A DNA stretch of 64,000 nt. Origin: Massalongia carnosa. Its lineage: Eukaryota. The notes below the pieces were generated by a model. The model was given only the letters and a program-made list of their open reading frames with translations, ran no database searches and had not been told where the DNA came from. Location: the NCBI GenBank assembly GCA_965645245.1, contig OZ287073.1, positions 2,418,001-2,482,000 on the forward strand. Reading direction: 5' to 3'. The position numbers were made by a program, and so were the translations under genes. Below, piece after piece: positions 37,515 through 48,243 of the stretch (the stretch's first letter is position 1; every line of letters starts with the position of its first letter).

Positions 37515-40253
37515 TCATTCGGAGGGCCTCTTCTACCGACGCTAATAATCTGTAGTGTCGTCGCAATCCACATTATTGGCACTTATCCCGACGACATTGG
37601 ATGTAGGAAGTCGGATGCAGGCGACCCTGAGGAAAACTATGTGAATTGGCTCCGGGACTTACACAAGTTGCTGGCTCTGATGTCGGATGCATGGATTATG
37701 CGATGGCAATATGAAATCAAGTGAAGGATAATCAACTCAAGGAAGTGTGGAAAGAGAGGTGTGAAGGCAGAAGTAGGAGGAGAGAAGGAAGGAGCAGAGG
37801 AGAAGTAAACAATGACAGGCGAGATGAGATTGAAGATGTTATTTTCACAATTTGATATCAAAGAAGAATCGCGAAGTATTATTCATTTCGCGTATACGCT
37901 GACATCTCTCTCTCATTTTGCATGCGGAAAGGGTTTGTTCCTGATGAACGATGCCGGCGTTTCGGCGAGAGGGATAGAAGACAACCTATACCGACTGTTG
38001 AACAAAAACCAACCAGGCATACGGCAGCGGGATACAGGAGAAGAGGGTCTAGGGCTATCAAGGATAGGCAAAGAGAAGTGTTTGGCAAACGTGATGCAGG
38101 TACTCCGTATTTCCAGTGAAGATACTCCAAATTTAGCTATCTGCTGAACTGAATTCTGAACGACTGAATAGCTAAATTACATGAGGAATCACGGCCTCTT
38201 TATACTGCTTGAAGGCCTTCATCTCGGCCTAACGTAATTCACCGCTATTCGGAACACCCGCTTCTTCGGAACTAACAAATTTGATACCAACCTTCGTAAT
38301 TTATTATCACCGCCGCATCCACAAAACTTCCAGCACATATACTCGGGAATTGATGAACAGGTTCTAGAGAATATATGTAGGCATAAGCCTGTAGAGCTAC
38401 AATTTACGAGTGTTACGAATGACACGACCGCGCGAGCTAACCCGAACCTCTAAAACTTCCTCCTTCTCCCCATTTCCTACTATTTCCACATCACCCTGTA
38501 CCAACTCAGTGGTATATTTCTTTCTTGATATACATTTTCCTTTATTCAGAGCAGTTTTTTTAAACCCTAGGTCACCCTCAACTGTCTCCTCAAAAATATG
38601 AGGTATTATGTGAAGAAGGTCGTGAAAAGCGTTTTGAAAGATAGAATCGTCTCGTTGCTTATTTTTAGGTAAAGATCGAGACGTTACGAGATAAGGCCCG
38701 TATATCAGGTCGGGTCCAAGTCGCATTAGGTCTTTAGATACCTGAGAAAATAGTCGATCGTTCTGTTTTTCTTTCCTTACCTGTGATCTAGCCTCTTTCT
38801 CCTTTTTCTTATTTTCAGCTAGTTGTCTTCTTTTCTCTACATCTTCTAAACTCAATAAGCGAGCCCCTTGACCATCGTATTGAGTGCCCGTACGTTGAGC
38901 TCGTTGTTTTTTTCGTGTATTGGCTGCCAAAAGCTCCGTATTAGTACGATTCAAGACAATACGATCAGCCATAGCAAGTCTAGCTGCTTTAAGGGTTTTT
39001 GTAGAATAGTAAGCTTAGGGGAATCGAGAGTCTGATGGCGAAATAGTAGTATATGCTCCTCAACCTCTGAGACTTGTTCTATGTTTCCTGGTGTTGGTGG
39101 TATTTGGCCTGAAAGATAACGCGTTTGAATAGGAGTACTAGCATCAGGTAGAGTGTCATCGTTCGTATGAGGCTTAGCTGATATTTTGTCTAAGAGAGCG
39201 GAAGGATTGTATGGAATAAGTCCAGTAGCTCGCCATGCTGATTGTATATTTCGAGCAGTAATACCTTGTTGCCTAGCTTTTTGTATTAAAGAAATGAAAT
39301 CAGCCTTGTCGATATTGTAGGTTGTAAACCATGTTTTCTCAGCTAGCAACGTTTTATAGTTTTGTTTTAAAGGGTCAAATACCCCAACATCAAGAGGCTG
39401 TAATAAGTGTGTTGAGTGTGCTGATAGACATAGACAAACTATTTTATGTTCCCGGGTAAATCGGATAAATTCAGTCGACACATGAGATGCATGCCCGTCA
39501 ACAATTAACATTCGATATTTACCACGGAGGTAAGCTCTTGTTGTTGGCTCAAAACAGTCACGCATCCACTCCATACAGAGCTTGTTATTAGTCCAGCCGT
39601 TTTCACTTATGGAAATACGAGTACCCGGTTCCATATTACTAGGATACCAATCATCTTTCCATCTCTTACCCTTTAAAATAACAAATAACGGTAATCGACG
39701 ACCAGTGGTACCAATAGCTTCAATGAGGGACGCCCATTCCCGATTACCAGCTTGATTTATAAATGCCTGTTTCTATTATTTTGAAAATATCACCTTTGAA
39801 CTCCCCGCAATACCCATCATATAACCGTTTTCATCCATGTTGTATGTATCCTCGTCCAATATACCATGTTGGGCCTTAATAGACAGATACAGATCGAACC
39901 ACTGCTGTAATGAATCCCGATTTTGAGCTAAATACCGTTCTTGATCAAGCGTACGGCTATATTTCGACTGTATTATAGGATGACGGTTGAGGAATTTTTC
40001 TGACCAGTTTTTGCCCAGTTCTTTCAAATCCTGTTTGGCTCGTAATAATTCTTCTGCCATTTCGCGTAACTGCGCTATTCTAGGCGGAAATCCCTAAGAC
40101 TGAAGTTGTAGCACCCAACTCTGAAGAGATCCTCCTCCTCGGGCATTAACCTCTGCTTTGAGGTAACGTACGATACCTGGTCCTGGCGACCGTTTATCCT
40201 GCGATACAATGTTGTTTTCGGTACCGCATGGAGCCAAGCAGCTTGCGTAATAG

Positions 40254-40944
40254 CTAGTTCGTGTCAATCTCGTTATATTGCTACTAAGTATGTTTGGGCT
40301 ATTGCTCACAGCCCCCGGCCTCGAGAGGGGGACTCGATAAGGGCCTTGCTGTCTACTAATGTAAGACCCTCTCGCAGGCCTTGGGCTGTGAACAGACTCC
40401 CTCTATCTAAGCGACAGAAGAACTGGAGTGGGTGGGTGGGAAAGAAAACGTTGCAAACAGTGCTATCAAAATGCTATGCTTTTTGATTGTCTTGAGATGT
40501 GAGATGATGAGGGATACCGTCTGGGACCTCCTCTTTATATATCTTCTTCCTATTCTCCTTGTCCTACTCTACCATCCCAGTATGCCCCATCAACGCGGCC
40601 CATAGCAAGGCATACACAAATCCGAAACCTAACTGTCGTCCGAAGGATCGATGCGGTGCTAAGATCTCTATGCCGTGCTGAGACATCCTTATGGTGCTGA
40701 GACATCTATGCCGTCCGAGAGATCCATGCGGTGCCGAAATCAAAGCGGGAGCTGTCTCGATTAACGACGCACTAGCTCTCAGCATAGCCGAACTAGCTAG
40801 TTCGTGTCAATCTCGTTATATTGCTACTAAGTATGTTTGGGCTATTGCTCACAGCCCCCGGCCTCGAGAGGGGGACTCGATAAGGGCCTTGCTGTCTACT
40901 AATGTAAGACCCTCTCGCAGGCCTTGGGCTGTGAACAGACTCCC
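40254..40944 (-). repeat. Ngaro 3' repeat block B1-A2-B2
   Basis: Copies identical by eye; the B1/A2 junction is the palindrome CGAACTAGCTAGTTCG (40789-40804). Confidence 0.95.
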
Positions 40945-40980: not shown

Positions 40981-42023
40981 TCAGGACCTAGTGACTGGAT
41001 TGTGAGGTTCCGTGGGTAATGTTTGAAGGCGTTTTGAGGCGTTAAGAAGGTAAGTGGGGTGGGTTTGTATGTAAAGCTTGTATGCGTCTGACTTCCATCT
41101 TCCTAGCATCTGAATCTCGTCTTCGGTGAGTCCTGCCCGTCGCGCTGTTGTTGCCGCACCTCTTCTGAACGAGTGGCCAGAGAAATTTCCTATATAGCCC
41201 AAGTTCCTTAAGGTGGATTTCATCGCTGTTGTAATGTAGTCTCGAGTGAAGGACTGACCGTTTTTAAAGAGTGGTGCGGCCGGAGAACTTGGGAATCGCC
41301 TATATAAATTTGTAAGAGAAGCTAGTGCACAAGCAACATCGTTGGTAGCCGCAATTGTCAGTGTTATGCCTCGGCGAAAGGGATCGGTTTTGGAGACTGG
41401 TAGAGAGAGCTGTAGGTGATCTGCTTCGAACCTAATAGATTTTCTGGTGAGGTGCCATTGATCAAAGCTTGGGTCTAGTACATCTTGCGTTGTGTAAGTA
41501 AATTCTCCGGCTCGTAAGAAGCCTGCAAACGCTAAGCAGTACGCCGCATGTAAATTTGCGCCTTTCTCTTTCGTTTGATCAAGACGACTTAGCAATTTGA
41601 TTAAGATCTCTCTAGTAATTGGTAACCTTTCACGTTTCTCGGCTTCACCGTTCTTTCGCTTTATGCCAGTAAGGATGCGATCTAACACCGGGTGATGAAA
41701 TACGTCGAGATTACCGAGGCCCATATCTATCTGGCATGATCTTATGCCCGTCAAGTAGCTCTTAATAGTTTTTGGTTGCAGGCGTCGTTCACCCAACGCT
41801 GCGATCCACGAAGACAGCGTCCGGATGTTGGCTGGAAATGGTGGCGCGTTGAGGTTTACCCTACAGTAAAGAACGTATCCCTTTCTTGCCGTTGTGTATA
41901 AAGATCTTGTCTTAGTGGCCAGGCCCCACCAGAGGTATCGTGCTGCGATTTCGTCTAGAGGTACCTCACTGTACCAAGATGGGGGTGGATCGCGTCCTAT
42001 ATTGCTGAGGGTAGAGCCTGAAA
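40981..42023 (-). CDS. Ngaro tyrosine recombinase (frame open from ~42036; no N-terminal ATG)
   Basis: AARYLWWGLATKTRSLY...FAGFLRAGEF...SKTD...SGHSFRRGAAT...GRWKSDAYKLY catalytic motifs. Confidence 0.92.
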
Positions 42024-43613
42024 CTGAGGGATTTTGTCAGCCAGTTTCTTCAAAAGTCCTCTAGACAAGAGATCAGCAATATAATTTTCTTTGGATGATA
42101 TCCATCGCGCTTCTATCTGGATATCATGTAATGCAGCTAGCATTGTAATTGCCCGCAGGGCATGCATTGCTTGGCCTCGTATAGAGGTTTTATTCACTCC
42201 TTTCGTGACAGCGTAGCTATCACAATAGAGGATTAAATGACTACCCTTGCATATAGGTAGCCACTTTTTCATAGCTTGAAGAATTGCTGTCATTTCTTTG
42301 ACGTTGATATGCTTTGCCCTAAGGCGCGTAGTAAAGCGTGTGCTAAAAGCCTGCCGGGCTGCTTGTATATTATGCAAATTTTGATCCTCGCTGAGGATAA
42401 AGCCGCCCATACCATATGAGCCGGACGCATCTGTCCATATTCTCATAGTATGTCTAGTACGGTTGAGCAGATGTATGCCATTCCATTTAGGTAGGAAATG
42501 ATGCCACCATAGAAGATCAGCCCTCATGTCCTTGTTAAGATGGATTAGTTTAGAGGTTACGCTTGCCGTAGCATTGAAAAGACGGCGTAGAAAGGCTCTT
42601 CCTGGTTTTACCACTCTGGCTGCAAAGCATAAGAATCCTAGAAGAGAGTCGAGTTCCTTCCTGGGTATGGCTTTTTTATTCAAAGCTGCCGATACTAGGG
42701 TCTTTGCTTTTAGTAACTTTTCGGAAGGCAAGCGTGCTTCCATGAGCGCGGTATCGATTTCAATGCCGAGGAAATCGCAAGTCGTTCCAGTTCTGTTCTT
42801 TTCGAGCTTGATTTTCATGCCAAGATCTTTACAAATGTTGTGGAAAACTTGATCAAACTTTTCAGCATCTGGTCCGGTGCTGACTATTATTAAAAAATCA
42901 TCCAAGTAATGAATAGCGTCTTTCCAACCACAGTTGTACAATATCCAGTTGATACCCTTCGCGAACAGATCAAAAAGGAACGGCGACGTTCTCAGCCCAA
43001 AGGGTAAGTATTTATCCATCCAAAAGGAATCCTGCCACTTGAAACCTAGTAACCACCAATCGCTTTTTGCTACTGGTATGTGGCGAAAAGCGTCCGCAAA
43101 GTCTCTTTTAATAAGAATACACCCTGGCCCGCGTTGCTCAATCAACCTAATGGCTTCGTCGAAGCTGGTATATTCCAGGGAGCCCCAGTCTTCCGGTATG
43201 TGGTCGTTGACTGAGCTACTCTCCGGATACGATAGATGATGGATTCGCCGCCAACCACCGTTAGCCTTTGGTACAAGGCCTAATGGGGAACATATAAAGC
43301 AAGAAGGAATGTTGTTGACTTTCTCCAACCGATTACTAGCTATTTGTTCTTCGAGGTCATTGGTAAGAACTTCCCGTGCCTCATTTGCAGAGGCAAGATT
43401 ATCGCTAATAATGAGTTGATGTGGTCCTGTATAACCAACTTTGGCACCGTAGGTGATGATATCGATAATTGTTTGTGTGTAAGTGCGATCCGGGTGATTG
43501 GCCAAATGTTTCTCCCAGCCTTCTTTCTTCAATGGGCCCGGTGGGATCTTTGTTAGATTGTCCGTCAAGGTGTATGGAAAGGACTCCGCGATGGATAAGA
43601 ATGGGGCGGTTAG
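41997..43613 (-). CDS. pol: Ngaro reverse transcriptase-RNase H, in frame behind the gag stop
   Basis: SPLGLVPK, WRRIHHLS, DFADAF, LPFGLRTSP, HYLDDF, WTDASG, HINVKE, NYIADLLSR. Confidence 0.95.
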   Translation of the reverse strand, partial: LTAPFLSIAESFPYTLTDNLTKIPPGPLKKEGWEKHLANHPDRTYTQTIIDIITYGAKVGYTGPHQLIISDNLASANEAREVLTNDLEEQIASNRLEKVNNIPSCFICSPLGLVPKANGGWRRIHHLSYPESSSVNDHIPEDWGSLEYTSFDEAIRLIEQRGPGCILIKRDFADAFRHIPVAKSDWWLLGFKWQDSFWMDKYLPFGLRTSPFLFDLFAKGINWILYNCGWKDAIHYLDDFLIIVSTGPDAEKFDQVFHNICKDLGMKIKLEKNRTGTTCDFLGIEIDTALMEARLPSEKLLKAKTLVSAALNKKAIPRKELDSLLGFLCFAARVVKPGRAFLRRLFNATASVTSKLIHLNKDMRADLLWWHHFLPKWNGIHLLNRTRHTMRIWTDASGSYGMGGFILSEDQNLHNIQAARQAFSTRFTTRLRAKHINVKEMTAILQAMKKWLPICKGSHLILYCDSYAVTKGVNKTSIRGQAMHALRAITMLAALHDIQIEARWISSKENYIADLLSRGLLKKLADKIPQFQALPSAI

Positions 43614-44768
43614 TCATTGCCTTGATGGGAGAGGCATCGAATTTGGGTTAGAGGGTTGATTTTTTCCATTTGTACAGTCCATCGCCCGATGTTGCTTTCC
43701 ACATTTCTCACACACATGTTGGAATCTACAATATACGGGACAGTCTTTGCCATAGTTGTATTTCTTACAGATAATCTTTTCGCCTGAGGTTTTGAAAGCC
43801 GTAGAATTATCGTCCGGTTTTGCAAAGTAAGCGGACGGTTTCCGCACAAGATGCCTTTCCAAGGAATGGTCCATTTCTTTCCATCCATCCGGGTTGTCAA
43901 TCCCGCGAAAGGCTCGAGATTTGTGGAAATTCAAATGAAAGATGCGAACCGAGTCCCAGGTGTAGAAGGCGTATAATGATAGAAGATGGTCCTGATAAGC
44001 CATGAAGGCTCTCATCAGGTTTATCTGGAGACCGGGGTGTGCAAAGTGTAGTAGTATCATCCAATATACCCCGAGACATCGTATCAAATGAACTATCCCT
44101 TTGATATCTTTTAAGGAGCCATCTTCTTCTCTCGTGGCGATTTCCAGACCTTCTCCGAGTTTGACGTATCTAGAGTTGGTTTGAACTCCGTCGATGTCGG
44201 TACATAGCTTGGTAATGTTGATTGGGTCAAACGTATTCTCGGAGATTTGCTTTATCCATATGGGCTTGATAGTGGGATATTCGTTCATAAGAGAAACAAA
44301 ACGAGGATCCATACCTTCTGTATACAATGAGTTTGGTCGATGCGGTGGAAATGATGTCGGAAATAATAGGGAAGGCTGTTGAGCTGAGGCTACTGGCCCA
44401 GGGACCACGTCTCGGGCACGTGCTTGTTGGGTTTCGATATCCCGCCTAAGACTTACTCTTTCTCTTTCCTCGGCTTCCCTGCGGGACATTTCGCGTTGTG
44501 CTCTAAGTTCAATAATGTCATCAGGGGTGCGAGAACGGGTTTCCGGTATAACAGGCCCTTGTGAGGAGGAATTAAACGCTGAAGATGGAAGAGGAGAAGG
44601 TTGAGGATGGCTTTGAAGGGTTGCCGTGCTGTCTTGTGAGTCGGGTACTTCGACGTCTGGGTTGGAGTTGGCTAGATTTGCCCTAGCTCTAGTTCTAGTA
44701 CGGGCTAGAGTGCTGCCTTGTGTGCGGGAGGTAGGCTTGGTGATTCTGTTGGAGATGCGGGTGGCCAT
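43614..44768 (-). CDS. gag: Ngaro gag-like protein
   Basis: ATG at 44768 (MATRISNR); C-terminal ICKKYNYGKDC...CRFQHVCEKCGKQHRAMDC zinc finger. Confidence 0.88.
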   Translation of the reverse strand: MATRISNRITKPTSRTQGSTLARTRTRARANLANSNPDVEVPDSQDSTATLQSHPQPSPLPSSAFNSSSQGPVIPETRSRTPDDIIELRAQREMSRREAEERERVSLRRDIETQQARARDVVPGPVASAQQPSLLFPTSFPPHRPNSLYTEGMDPRFVSLMNEYPTIKPIWIKQISENTFDPINITKLCTDIDGVQTNSRYVKLGEGLEIATREEDGSLKDIKGIVHLIRCLGVYWMILLHFAHPGLQINLMRAFMAYQDHLLSLYAFYTWDSVRIFHLNFHKSRAFRGIDNPDGWKEMDHSLERHLVRKPSAYFAKPDDNSTAFKTSGEKIICKKYNYGKDCPVYCRFQHVCEKCGKQHRAMDCTNGKNQPSNPNSMPLPSRQ

Positions 44769-44836
44769 TTTTGGAGGAGAGGGATTTGAATAGAGTAAAT
44801 TTAAGTGTAGTGGTTGTATAAATTTGAATTGGGTGA

Positions 44837-45192
44837 AAAGAAAACGTTGCAAACAGTGCTATCAAAATGCTATGCTTTTTGATTGTCTTGAGATGTGAGA
44901 TGATGAGGGATACCGTCTGGGACCTCCTCTTTATATATCTTCTTCCTATTCTCCTTGTCCTACTCTACCATCCCAGTATGCCCCATCAACGCGGCCCATA
45001 GCAAGGCATACACAAATCCGAAACCTAACTGTCGTCCGAAGGATCGATGCGGTGCTAAGATCTCTATGCCGTGCTGAGACATCCTTATGGTGCTGAGACA
45101 TCTATGCCGTCCGAGAGATCCATGCGGTGCCGAAATCAAAGCGGGAGCTGTCTCGATTAACGACGCACTAGCTCTCAGCATAGCCGAACTAG
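44837..45192 (-). repeat. Ngaro 5' repeat A1 (putative promoter)
   Basis: Identical to 40441-40796; TATATAAAG on the minus strand near 44930-44938. Confidence 0.9.
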
Positions 45193-45266: not shown

Positions 45267-48243
45267 CAGTCAGATCGGGTTATAAGAAACTGCTGCTTAA
45301 GAAACCTCGGCTAGTAAGAAACTCGGACGAAAAGACCGGTTTTTTTTTGGTGAGGGATAAGAAACCTCGCTCTATTAGAAAGTTTATTAACTTTCTCTAA
45401 AAATTTTGCGGTGGTTTCTTATAGTAAATATGACTTCTCCTTCGACTTCTTTGAGATATAATAGTCAAAATTCGGAGATTCCATCTCCTTCATCTCGAAA
45501 TCCTCGAAAACGTCCTACATCCCCGCTTTCTCCCAGAGAGAGAAGCAGAAAAAAGCGTGACGCCTTTACCGACGATCAACGACGAGCATTACGACAGCGT
45601 TACCAAGATCCTGCTGTATCTGGAGATGACAAGAAATACGAAAATCTGGCCGTTTGGTTTGACAATCTTTACCGTCATAAAATTGACAAAGGACAAGTTT
45701 CCAAAATCCTCTCACATAAATGGGCTCATCTGGATACATCTCACGCATTGCTACGCCCGAATCTGAAGAAAACTCGAACTGCACATTGGCCTGAATTAGA
45801 AACGGCCTTATTTGAGTGGCAACAGCGCATGCAACGCAAAAGAGCGCCTTTGTCGGGCGATTTGTTAAGAGAAATGGCCTTGAAATTTTGGAAACGATTG
45901 CCTCTGTACCGTAATCAACCACCTCCCAGGTTCTCTATTGGATGGCTGGATTCTTTCAAAAGAAGATACAAGATTACAAAACATAGACAACACGGCGAGC
46001 TCGGTTCCGTCAAGCGTGTGGAGGTTGAAGAAGAGTGTAATGGGCTACGAGACCAGTAAGCTTATCACGAGCGACACTGATCTCGAAAGGGGAAATGCTC
46101 AGCGTGAGAGGTGGAAGATAGCTACTACGTGCTGGTCTCCGAAAGTATACGTGATCCAAAGAACTAATGGATGTGGAAGTGCTTAGACCAAGAGATCTCG
46201 TCCGAGACCCAAACGTAGGTTGTTCATAGAATAAAGACTAATTGCTAACGAATACTACAGGATTCGTTCTGGTATTTATCCTACTCACCCCAAGCCTATA
46301 GCCTTGGGAGCTTTGGAACCTTTAGGAGCCTTGCAACCCACTTCTGACCTTATCGCCTTACATCCTGTTGAAACACCAGGCTATTGATCATGAAACGGAA
46401 GTAGGGCAAATAAGAAGCATACATGTCATTGAGGGTTATTATCTATGTGGGCTATCTACCTGCTTTTATAGCAGTCACACTGCAGTAATGCTGTAGGCTT
46501 CCCATAGCTGCCTGTTAGGCACCTCCATAGGTGCCTGGTAGACACCCGTGTGACTCACGATGGATGCCTATATTGATGGTAGCCTGACCATCTAACCAAT
46601 GGTAGCCTCACCATCTAACAATATATTCCGTTTTGCCTCCCTTAGCTGGCAGATGGATGACATCTCGAATGATTAGTGATGTGTTGCCACGGCCGAAATA
46701 ACCCTTAGTGCTTGATCCGCATTCGGTTAGTGCTCTTATTAATAAGCAGACATCTCGGCTCAATTCTCAACACATCCAACCATCCCTCAGGATCCATCTA
46801 CGAACTCGGCGTTCGCTGGATCATCTAGTCAGCCTCGAGCAGCCTTCTAGACCTTCCCTTGCAAGGTAGAACACTTCTACCTCCGGCTAGTGTTGGTTAG
46901 ATTGGGTTCTGGAATGATCAACCAGCTTTCTCTAAGACTCTCCACGCAGTAAATAAGGTGAGAGACAGACTGGAAATAGGCTTGAAGTGATAAACTATGT
47001 AATGACTGACTAGCTAATTTACAGAGAGAAGATACAGCTATTATATAGAAGTTGAGACTACCTCAATTCCTCCTATTTGCAATGACTCCTCCGAGCTCAT
47101 CGTATTACCCGTGATTGGTAATGTCCAGCTTACTCTCTGACTCATATTGCCACATAGAAGTATCTCGATGATACTTGCTTAAGCTTTCATAGCTAAGCGC
47201 TTGATATTGAATGTGGCGTTGATACTAATCAACTGTGACAATCAAGGGGCAACGGCACAGCTCAGGATAAGATTACCCAATTAGGCATAGACTTAATGCC
47301 GTGGCGGATGAGGCGGATGAGGCGAAAAGCACGTTGCATGAGGTCATGTCAACAACCTCGTCAATTAGCAACAGCTAGATCCCTCACTACATTGCTAGCC
47401 TGCCTCTAAACATAAAATCTAGACGCCGAGGCTATGTAGCTTCATTTCGCCGTCACCACTACCAACGTAGCGATGGAAGGTTACCTCCGACTGAATCTCT
47501 ATCTACACTGCGGACCTGCCTCTAGACACAAGGTCTAGACCACAAGGTAGGGAGCCGTTAAAAACCATCAACGTACTGCTGGCAATACGTTGGTGCATAG
47601 CTGCCTGTAATTACGGTGTTACTTAGTTAACTATCTCTAATTGTTGGCTGAAATCACGTGTAATCGGGGCAAAATATGGGCCAATGACTCGAGAAGAGGC
47701 GAAGAAATATGGCTATCTCAATGAGACTCGGGCGCAAGAGCAAGAAACGGAGCAACGATTACAGATAAAAGCTACAATACGGCGTTTGGAAGACCGTAGT
47801 CATATACAAAGCGCCATGCATATTGGCGAATTTCTGAACCCTGTTGAAGAGGTGGTAGAGGATACCGAAGAGGATTTGGAGGATCACATCGTTGCTATAT
47901 ATGGTGGCCATGAAAGGGAATACGAGACGGAGGAGGAGGAGGTCATTGTATCACGTGTCCAAAACAAGGACGCTCTACGAGCTCGTGAAACGTTACGGTT
48001 ATATGAGGAGCAACGAGAGGTCGGTGACGATGATTTGATACGTCGTCTGAATCGTAAAGAGTGGGATATCAGGACCTCAATGGCGGTTAGCTCTAGTCAA
48101 GCTGTAATGACGGATTTCTTTGCCATTAGGTAGTCGATAGGTATAGTCTTGAAAATATGCCAAGAATTTTGATATTAGAAACCTCGCTTAATAAGAAACC
48201 TAGGTGCTACGATTTTGGAGTTTCTTATAACCCGATCTGACTG
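45267..48243 (+). mobile_element. pogo/Tigger-like (CENP-B-type) DNA transposon, internally disrupted
   Basis: 25-bp TIR CAGTCAGATCGGGTTATAAGAAACT; TA TSD; HTH ORF 45430-46059 (WPELETALFEW, FSIGWLDSFKRR); C-terminal piece 47684-48133; DDE core not seen. Confidence 0.9.
46063..47550. mobile_element. Cluster of LTR-like remnants inside the Tigger-like element
   Basis: Family D-like copy ~46382-46620 ending CCATCTAACA; TGTTGGTTAG...CTAATCAAC ~46891-47233; no long ORF. Confidence 0.55.

Follow-up and report, generated by a model that had tools for sequence, protein, structure and literature searches.

An in-frame UGA-CUA stop between the gag-like and reverse transcriptase genes of a fungal Ngaro retrotransposon: a candidate site of translational read-through

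In gammaretroviruses of the murine leukemia virus (MLV) type, the classical case, Gag-Pol is produced by read-through of an in-frame stop codon; in MLV this is a UAG with a spacer and a pseudoknot downstream. The Candida albicans retrotransposon Tca2 (Ty1/copia) has its gag and pol genes in one frame with a UGA between them, and a pseudoknot has been proposed there as well. Read-through at UGA-CU(A) also occurs in cellular genes of fungi and animals, where it yields peroxisomal isoforms of Tpi1, LDHB and MDH1 (PMC4207609). For Ngaro and other DIRS-order elements, the searchable literature, judged by the titles and abstract openings listed, contained no account of read-through at the junction of gag and reverse transcriptase (RT) or of an in-frame stop there; the founding Ngaro papers lay outside this search and may note the arrangement. 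The available portions of PMC3783388, PMC8547959, PMC9210276, PMC6681497, PMC3266345 and PMC4157794 make no mention of a gag-RT stop or of read-through. Here we describe such a junction in a stretch of 64,000 nucleotides from Massalongia carnosa (contig OZ287073.1, positions 2,418,001 to 2,482,000 of the forward strand), referred to below as the window and numbered from its first nucleotide. The minus strand of the window carries an active-looking, complete Ngaro (DIRS-order, tyrosine-recombinase) retrotransposon of a fungus, whose gag-like and RT genes lie in one frame on either side of a single UGA.

The proposed recoding site, CAA TGA CTA ACC, occupies positions 43608..43619 (-). The minus strand reads ...CCA TCA AGG CAA TGA CTA ACC GCC CCA TTC..., with the TGA at 43616-43614 and the CTA at 43613-43611. 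Two open reading frames (ORFs), measured from stop to stop, abut at this point in the same frame, one containing gag (43614..44858) and the other RT (41997..43613), and their joint translation across the stop is ...NPNSMPLPSRQ-stop-LTAPFLSIAESFPYTLTDNLTK... (also written ...MPLPSRQ-stop-LTAPFLSIAESFPYTL...). From its ATG at 44768, the gag-like ORF1 (43617..44768, minus strand) encodes 384 amino acids; its C-terminal part contains a Cys/His knuckle, CEKCGKQHRAMDC, and ends in NPNSMPLPSRQ. ORF2 (41997..43613, minus strand), which encodes RT and ribonuclease H (RNase H), consists of 538 sense codons and a TAG and is in the frame of ORF1. Its first ATG is found at 43019, as codon 199 within the sequence WMDKYLPFG, and leaves a product of 340 amino acids. 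In an alignment of 21 ORF2 sequences, conserved positions start at L37, and both D171 of motif A (KRDFADAFR) and the Y236-L237-D238-D239 residues are invariant. M199 falls between the two and thus downstream of D171, so that a product started at this first ATG would lack a catalytic aspartate and the conserved N-terminal third. The motif SE.FPY.L, nine codons past the stop, recurs in RT ORFs that are about 50% identical overall. ORF2 needs upstream translation. An initial reading made from the nucleotide sequence alone (the sequence-only reading) had described gag as ending in SRQ-TGA, followed in frame by CTA ACC GCC and 538 sense codons, and RT as having no usable ATG of its own; the first description holds at 43616-43614 and the positions that follow, and so does the second, codon 199 being inside RT and past the invariant D171.

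This arrangement is probably best explained by programmed, context-driven read-through of the UGA, which would give mostly Gag and a minority of Gag-RT/RNase H fusion protein. Most ribosomes that initiate ORF1 at its ATG (44768) would terminate at the UGA (43616-43614), releasing the 384-amino acid Gag-like protein. A minority would decode the UGA by a near-cognate tRNA, favored by the weak-termination context UGA-CUA and the adenines at positions -1 and -2, and enter ORF2 in frame to produce a Gag-RT/RNase H fusion of approximately 923 amino acids. The leakiness of the stop would then set the Gag:Pol ratio, as in gammaretroviruses. The occurrence of read-through, its efficiency and the residue inserted at the UGA are predictions drawn from the sequence. 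The context itself is UGA CUA A, with CAA ahead. As the sequence-only reading had asserted, UGA-CUA is an established read-through motif: Stiebler et al. (PMC4207609) showed, in Ustilago maydis as well as in HeLa cells, that a UGA needs only CU directly after it to be read through efficiently, and that an A at +3 enhances the effect. No tRNA genes, as candidate suppressors, were found in the window.

Related junctions were obtained at the DNA level by scanning prokaryotic genome contigs with the ORF2 alignment. The scan returned seven Ngaro-like loci (L001-L007), six of them with upstream sequence, whose RT is 36-43% identical to that of the window. One of these, L001, carries RT, RNase H and a tyrosine recombinase (YR) ORF, the latter matching Phage_integrase with E=6.9e-5. 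The loci had been binned in bacterial metagenome-assembled genomes (Acidobacteria, Bacteroidetes, Kribbellaceae), and one of the homologous proteins carries the label Chloroflexi; these assignments probably reflect fungal contamination. At each related junction, an ORF with a Cys/His knuckle stops shortly past the knuckle. A profile of the gag family (see below) recognizes ORF1 of L002, L004, L007 and L006 (E 5e-15 to 1e-7) and shows no match to ORF1 of L001 and L005, with which the knuckle alone is held in common. At five of the six loci with upstream DNA, the RT ORF comes directly after the gag stop and in its frame: L001 (AAA TAA CTA), L005 (AAG TGA ATC), L007 (AAA TAG CAA, then TTC), L002 (CAC TGA CTA) and L006 (TTC TAA ATA), the last a decayed copy with later frameshifts. 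At the sixth, L004 (AAT TGA CTA), the frame cannot be judged, as a masked run of 16 N lies where the RT frame opens. In the window (CAA TGA CTA), too, the RT ORF follows directly and in frame.

Counting the window, CTA stands immediately after the stop in four of seven elements (window, L001, L002, L004) whereas it accounts for 1.4% of all codons in the same ORFs (binomial P=1.4e-6). Compared without gaps, no two junctions are more than 40% identical in nucleotide sequence, and they are therefore not copies of one another. L001 presents the same lack of a usable AUG as the window, the first Met of its ORF2 being residue 322 and the RT profile starting at residue 130. The sequence-only reading had proposed that related elements be compared for a conserved in-frame stop with CTA; the comparison gave an in-frame stop at 5/6 loci and a stop plus CTA in 4/7 elements, with one protein, P0161, as the exception (see below). 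The distance between the gag stop and conserved RT sequence varies: in the distant relatives (L004 790-1611, L002 1153-1500) the two are joined by a linker of 84-130 codons, rich in Ser, Pro and Thr and made up in part of tandem repeats, while the window family has almost no linker, conserved ORF2 sequence beginning nine codons past the stop.

Among gag proteins, too, the position of the end is conserved. Two distinct ORF1 families are closest to the window protein, at 41% and 38% identity, and both end at the exact aligned column, with the sequences ...NPNYIPTGRRE and ...NPNLQPVSRRE before their stops. Searched against 1.84 billion representatives, a profile built from the window ORF1 and these two families detected 968 homologues (E<=1e-3), the best 150 of which were rescored locally and used for the checks on gag ends and fusions. 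The longest of these 150 has 529 amino acids. Seventy extend to no more than 20 positions from the profile end. The ends of 42 of them agree with the expected stop to +/-5 residues, 17 run longer (at most +95) and 11 stop 12-18 residues early, just past the knuckle. ORF2 sequence occurs in only two of the 150, P0161 and P0004, the second being an NCBI gene model from Peltigera that jumps from the middle of gag to the N-terminus of ORF2. In the opposite direction, none of 33 ORF2 homologues of 507-675 amino acids contains a match to the gag profile, and no Gag-RT protein fused across the junction was found between 507 and 1616 amino acids, all 33 matches being RT ORFs. ORF1 relatives of 673-2000 amino acids gave no match either, which is weak evidence. 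Many gag homologues have, a few residues ahead of the stop, a loose tail of the form N-x-(N/T/S)-x-x-P-(L/V/I)-G-x-R, for example NSTPLGNR or NTTPLGKR, the window counterpart being NPNSMPLPSR (43617-43650, minus strand). Of the 42 homologues whose end lies at the conserved position, 15 fit a strict regular expression for this tail. The conserved tail may be a feature of the Gag protein or may influence termination.

Several observations weigh against read-through, and some of them favor a different route to RT, in which ORF2 would be translated apart from Gag, either from a subgenomic transcript or by ribosomes that start at a non-AUG codon just past the stop, having terminated there or entered internally; its frame would then be incidental. 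Near-cognate start codons are present within the first 30 codons of ORF2 (ATC at codon 8, TTG at 16, ACG at 17). Some relatives have a Met close to the junction: in L005, L007 and L006 it lies 13-20 codons past the stop, and the RT ORFs P0012, P0014, P0020 and P0021 begin with "MP", the initial M of P0012, P0020 and P0021 aligning with the first codon past the window stop. In some families the start of ORF2 may thus be independent. Gene callers write M for TTG starts, as is seen when P0056 is compared with the window. Stop contexts are also not uniform, three of the seven elements having TGA ATC, TAG CAA TTC or TAA ATA. Nor was a stimulatory RNA structure detected after the window stop, where segments of 127 and 120 nucleotides fold no better than shuffled sequences (z=+1.29 and +0.86), so that a high, MLV-like level of read-through would lack its usual stimulator. 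Structure past the stop was seen in only two of the seven elements, L001 (z=-3.5, a hairpin starting from the CUA) and L007 (z=-2.75), and no conserved downstream RNA structure was found among the window and the related loci. A scan of 43300-43800 against Rfam gave nothing at threshold, the one hit, to mir-278, being at chance level (E=0.92). Finally, P0161, an ORF of 310 amino acids with 23% identity, has a sense codon at the junction and continues in frame. P0161 is AT-biased (FYINK 0.41 vs 0.22-0.25), ends within RT and is probably a decayed copy.

Independent translation of ORF2 nevertheless leaves much unaccounted for. The frame is the same at all five related loci where it can be judged, in addition to the window; for the relatives alone the chance of this is (1/3)^5, or about 0.4%. 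The enrichment of CTA after the stop is not explained. ORF2 is free of AUG for 198 codons in the window and for 321 codons in L001, and ribosomes reaching it by scanning would have to cross approximately 1.15 kb of gag with several AUGs. On balance we consider a separate start for ORF2 unlikely, though worth serious attention.

The UGA might also be removed in part of the transcripts by splicing of a small intron that contains it, joining gag and RT in frame. The stop is embedded in TGACTAAC, which resembles the fungal branch-point consensus CTRAY and precedes a pyrimidine-rich tract and an AG; the CTAAC itself lies at 43613-43609, with ...CCGCCCCATTCTTATCCATCGCGGAG downstream. Donor sites fit this proposal poorly. 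Of 60 in-frame GT..AG intervals of 40-400 nucleotides enumerated across the stop, none has a GTRNGT donor, and the best available donors, GTAAGA at 43768 and GTGAGA at 43711, would remove the conserved Cys/His knuckle and/or FPY motif. Conserved protein sequence, moreover, reaches the stop from gag and resumes nine codons past it, and CTAAC is absent from the other three elements in which CTA follows the stop. An intron at this position is accordingly quite improbable.

A third possibility is that the copy is dead and its TGA arose by nonsense mutation, with functional relatives encoding a continuous Gag-Pol protein. The one distant ORF that is continuous over the junction, P0161, speaks for it, but copies of the family, homologues, related loci and the terminal repeats of the element all contradict it. 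The exact ORF1 protein heads a cluster of 18 members at >=90% identity, and ORF2 a cluster of 24; counts for the ORF1 family rest on 15 listed members of the 18. The sequence ...PLPSRQ is the C-terminus in 13 of these 15, that is, in every one that reaches the position; the other two end prematurely and none is extended. The 13 comprise nine distinct full-length variants of 384 amino acids (that of the window and eight differing from it by 1-3 residues) and four that are short at the N-terminus. One ORF1 variant is present on 20 contigs. ORF2 calls in the family begin at TTG codons 16 or 37 past the stop (written M) and never upstream. Since the copies share the ...PLPSRQ end and ORF2 calls never start before it, the lineage that was amplified already had the stop. 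Farther away, the stop is kept at the aligned column at 38-41% identity, in-frame stops occur at five distant loci, and no gag-RT fusion appears at 507-2000 amino acids. The terminal repeats of the element are 99-100% identical (see below). Decay is therefore very improbable as the origin of the TGA. The sequence-only reading had judged decay unlikely and had looked to sister copies for a sense codon in place of the stop; the shared stop of the 13 copies, the lack of extended ones and the variant on 20 contigs agree with that judgment, and no sense codon was found there among the 15 listed members.

Coupled termination-reinitiation at an overlapping AUGA, the mechanism used at the coat protein/RNA-dependent RNA polymerase junction of victoriviruses, has in its favor an ATG that overlaps the stop (caATGAct, 43617-43615), but it is contradicted by the frames, as this ATG, lying in the -1 frame, starts an ORF of just 80 codons (43405..43647) whereas RT is in frame 0, and with AUGA in none of six related junctions we give it hardly any weight. 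The 80-codon ORF that runs in the -1 frame (43405-43647, minus strand) from the ATG overlapping the gag stop is probably fortuitous, the overlap being absent from the related junctions.

The remainder of the element conforms to the Ngaro type, all four features of which are present: split repeats, RT with RNase H, a tyrosine recombinase, and the absence of methyltransferase and protease. On the minus strand the order is A1-[ORFs]-B1-A2-B2, the split direct repeats of Ngaro elements. The 5' repeat A1 (44837..45136, minus strand) is 100% identical over 300 nucleotides to A2 (40441..40740, minus strand), a pairing that lengthens to 367 nucleotides at 99.2% identity in blastn, and B1 (40789..40944, minus strand) is 99-100% identical to B2 (40246..40401, minus strand). 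With A1/A2 at 100% and B1/B2 at 99-100%, the element is intact and young. Pfam places RVT_1 at ORF2 residues 153-286 (E=2.9e-14) and RT_RNaseH at residues 388-476 (E=1.4e-7). ORF3 (40981..42036, minus strand), the tyrosine recombinase, matches Phage_integrase with E=4.6e-4 and 20.4 bits, under the 27.1-bit cut-off; HSFRRG and a downstream Tyr are visible in its translation. No rve (DDE integrase) domain was found in the element at E<=0.01 in Pfam, and methyltransferase and protease families likewise gave no match at that threshold, the RT/RNase H families and Phage_integrase being the only ones detected. The absence of a methyltransferase separates Ngaro from DIRS1-like elements (PMC3266345). 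Further copies of the element were not found by blastn within the 64-kb window.

The nearest named relatives of ORF1 are hypothetical proteins from two lichen-forming members of the Peltigerales, Peltigera leucophlebia and Pseudocyphellaria aurata. ORF1 has no Pfam family. An AlphaFold2 (AF2) model (predicted local distance difference test, pLDDT, 75.9; predicted template modeling score, pTM, 0.52) shows a long helix at 82-120 and a helical domain at 155-307, followed by the knuckle, and found no significant fold match, the best being E=2.9 in PDB and E=0.27 in BFVD. The designation of ORF1 as Gag is thus a putative one, based only on its position and the Cys/His knuckle. Pieces of pogo/Tc5-like transposases, reading away from the element, lie on both sides of the Ngaro, with DDE_1 (E=1.5e-30) and a partial HTH_Tnp_Tc5 on the left (38400-40093, minus strand) and HTH_ABP1_N plus HTH_Tnp_Tc5 (E=5.5e-19) on the right (45430-46056, plus strand). 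The Ngaro is embedded in a transposon-rich stretch.

The recombinase ORF presents a problem of its own. In all four elements with both ORFs (window, L001, L003, L004) its frame is -1 with respect to RT/RNase H and the two ORFs overlap, at 41997-42036 (minus strand, 40 nucleotides) in the window, 3438-4521 in L001, 1660-1756 in L003 and 2891-3077 in L004. Its first Met is codon 105 in the window, 95 in L001, 125 in L003 and 302 in L004, and none of the four overlaps contains a canonical slippery heptamer (X XXY YYZ) in the RT frame. Expression of the recombinase may therefore need a second step, non-canonical recoding or splicing. It seems conceivable, and we put it forward tentatively, that a large fungal Ngaro clade (hundreds of gag families) has inherited from its ancestor, and conserved, a leaky in-frame stop, preferably stop-CUA, as the switch between Gag and Pol, combined with a second conserved recoding step for the recombinase; the second step is proposed because the recombinase ORF is always in the -1 frame and has neither an AUG of its own nor a canonical slippery site. 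If this were so, one mRNA would give Gag, Gag-RT/RNase H and Gag-RT/RNase H-YR in falling amounts, and the first recoding signals would be defined for any DIRS-order retrotransposon. With both the in-frame stop and the -1 recombinase frame as recoding sites, Ngaro would constitute a compact natural system for serial recoding in fungi. Polymerase expression in tyrosine-recombinase retrotransposons is essentially unstudied, and the locus, its multi-copy family and the distant relatives together offer a concrete, cheaply testable signal of six nucleotides. With read-through at this site, the fungal UGA-CUA context would serve a mobile element in addition to host metabolic enzymes. The arrangement also explains why gene callers split or mis-join such elements, as in the Peltigera model P0004, in which gag runs into RT.

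Among the known systems, gammaretroviruses resemble the window element in having a single in-frame stop between gag and pol and a pol without a start of its own, so that in both cases leakiness would set the Gag:Gag-Pol ratio. They differ in that the window has UGA-CUA with no detectable downstream structure, and in that the element is a tyrosine-recombinase retrotransposon with neither protease nor DDE integrase. Tca2, like the window element, is a retrotransposon of a fungus, and its gag and pol share one frame split by a UGA, but it belongs to the long terminal repeat elements and has a protease and an integrase. The Ngaro elements presented in the available portions of PMC3783388 and PMC8547959 share with the window element the A1-[ORFs]-B1A2B2 layout, the order gag-like, RT/RNase H, YR, the lack of a methyltransferase and a YR ORF possibly in another frame; they are presented there as having separate ORFs, and remarks on frame concern RT/RNase H and YR only. 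In the cellular cases (PMC4207609), read-through adds short C-terminal targeting extensions to host enzymes, whereas here it would add a 538-residue mobile-element polymerase; the six nucleotides, UGA CUA, are nonetheless the same, the host is likewise a fungus, and in the reporters used there the short context was sufficient.

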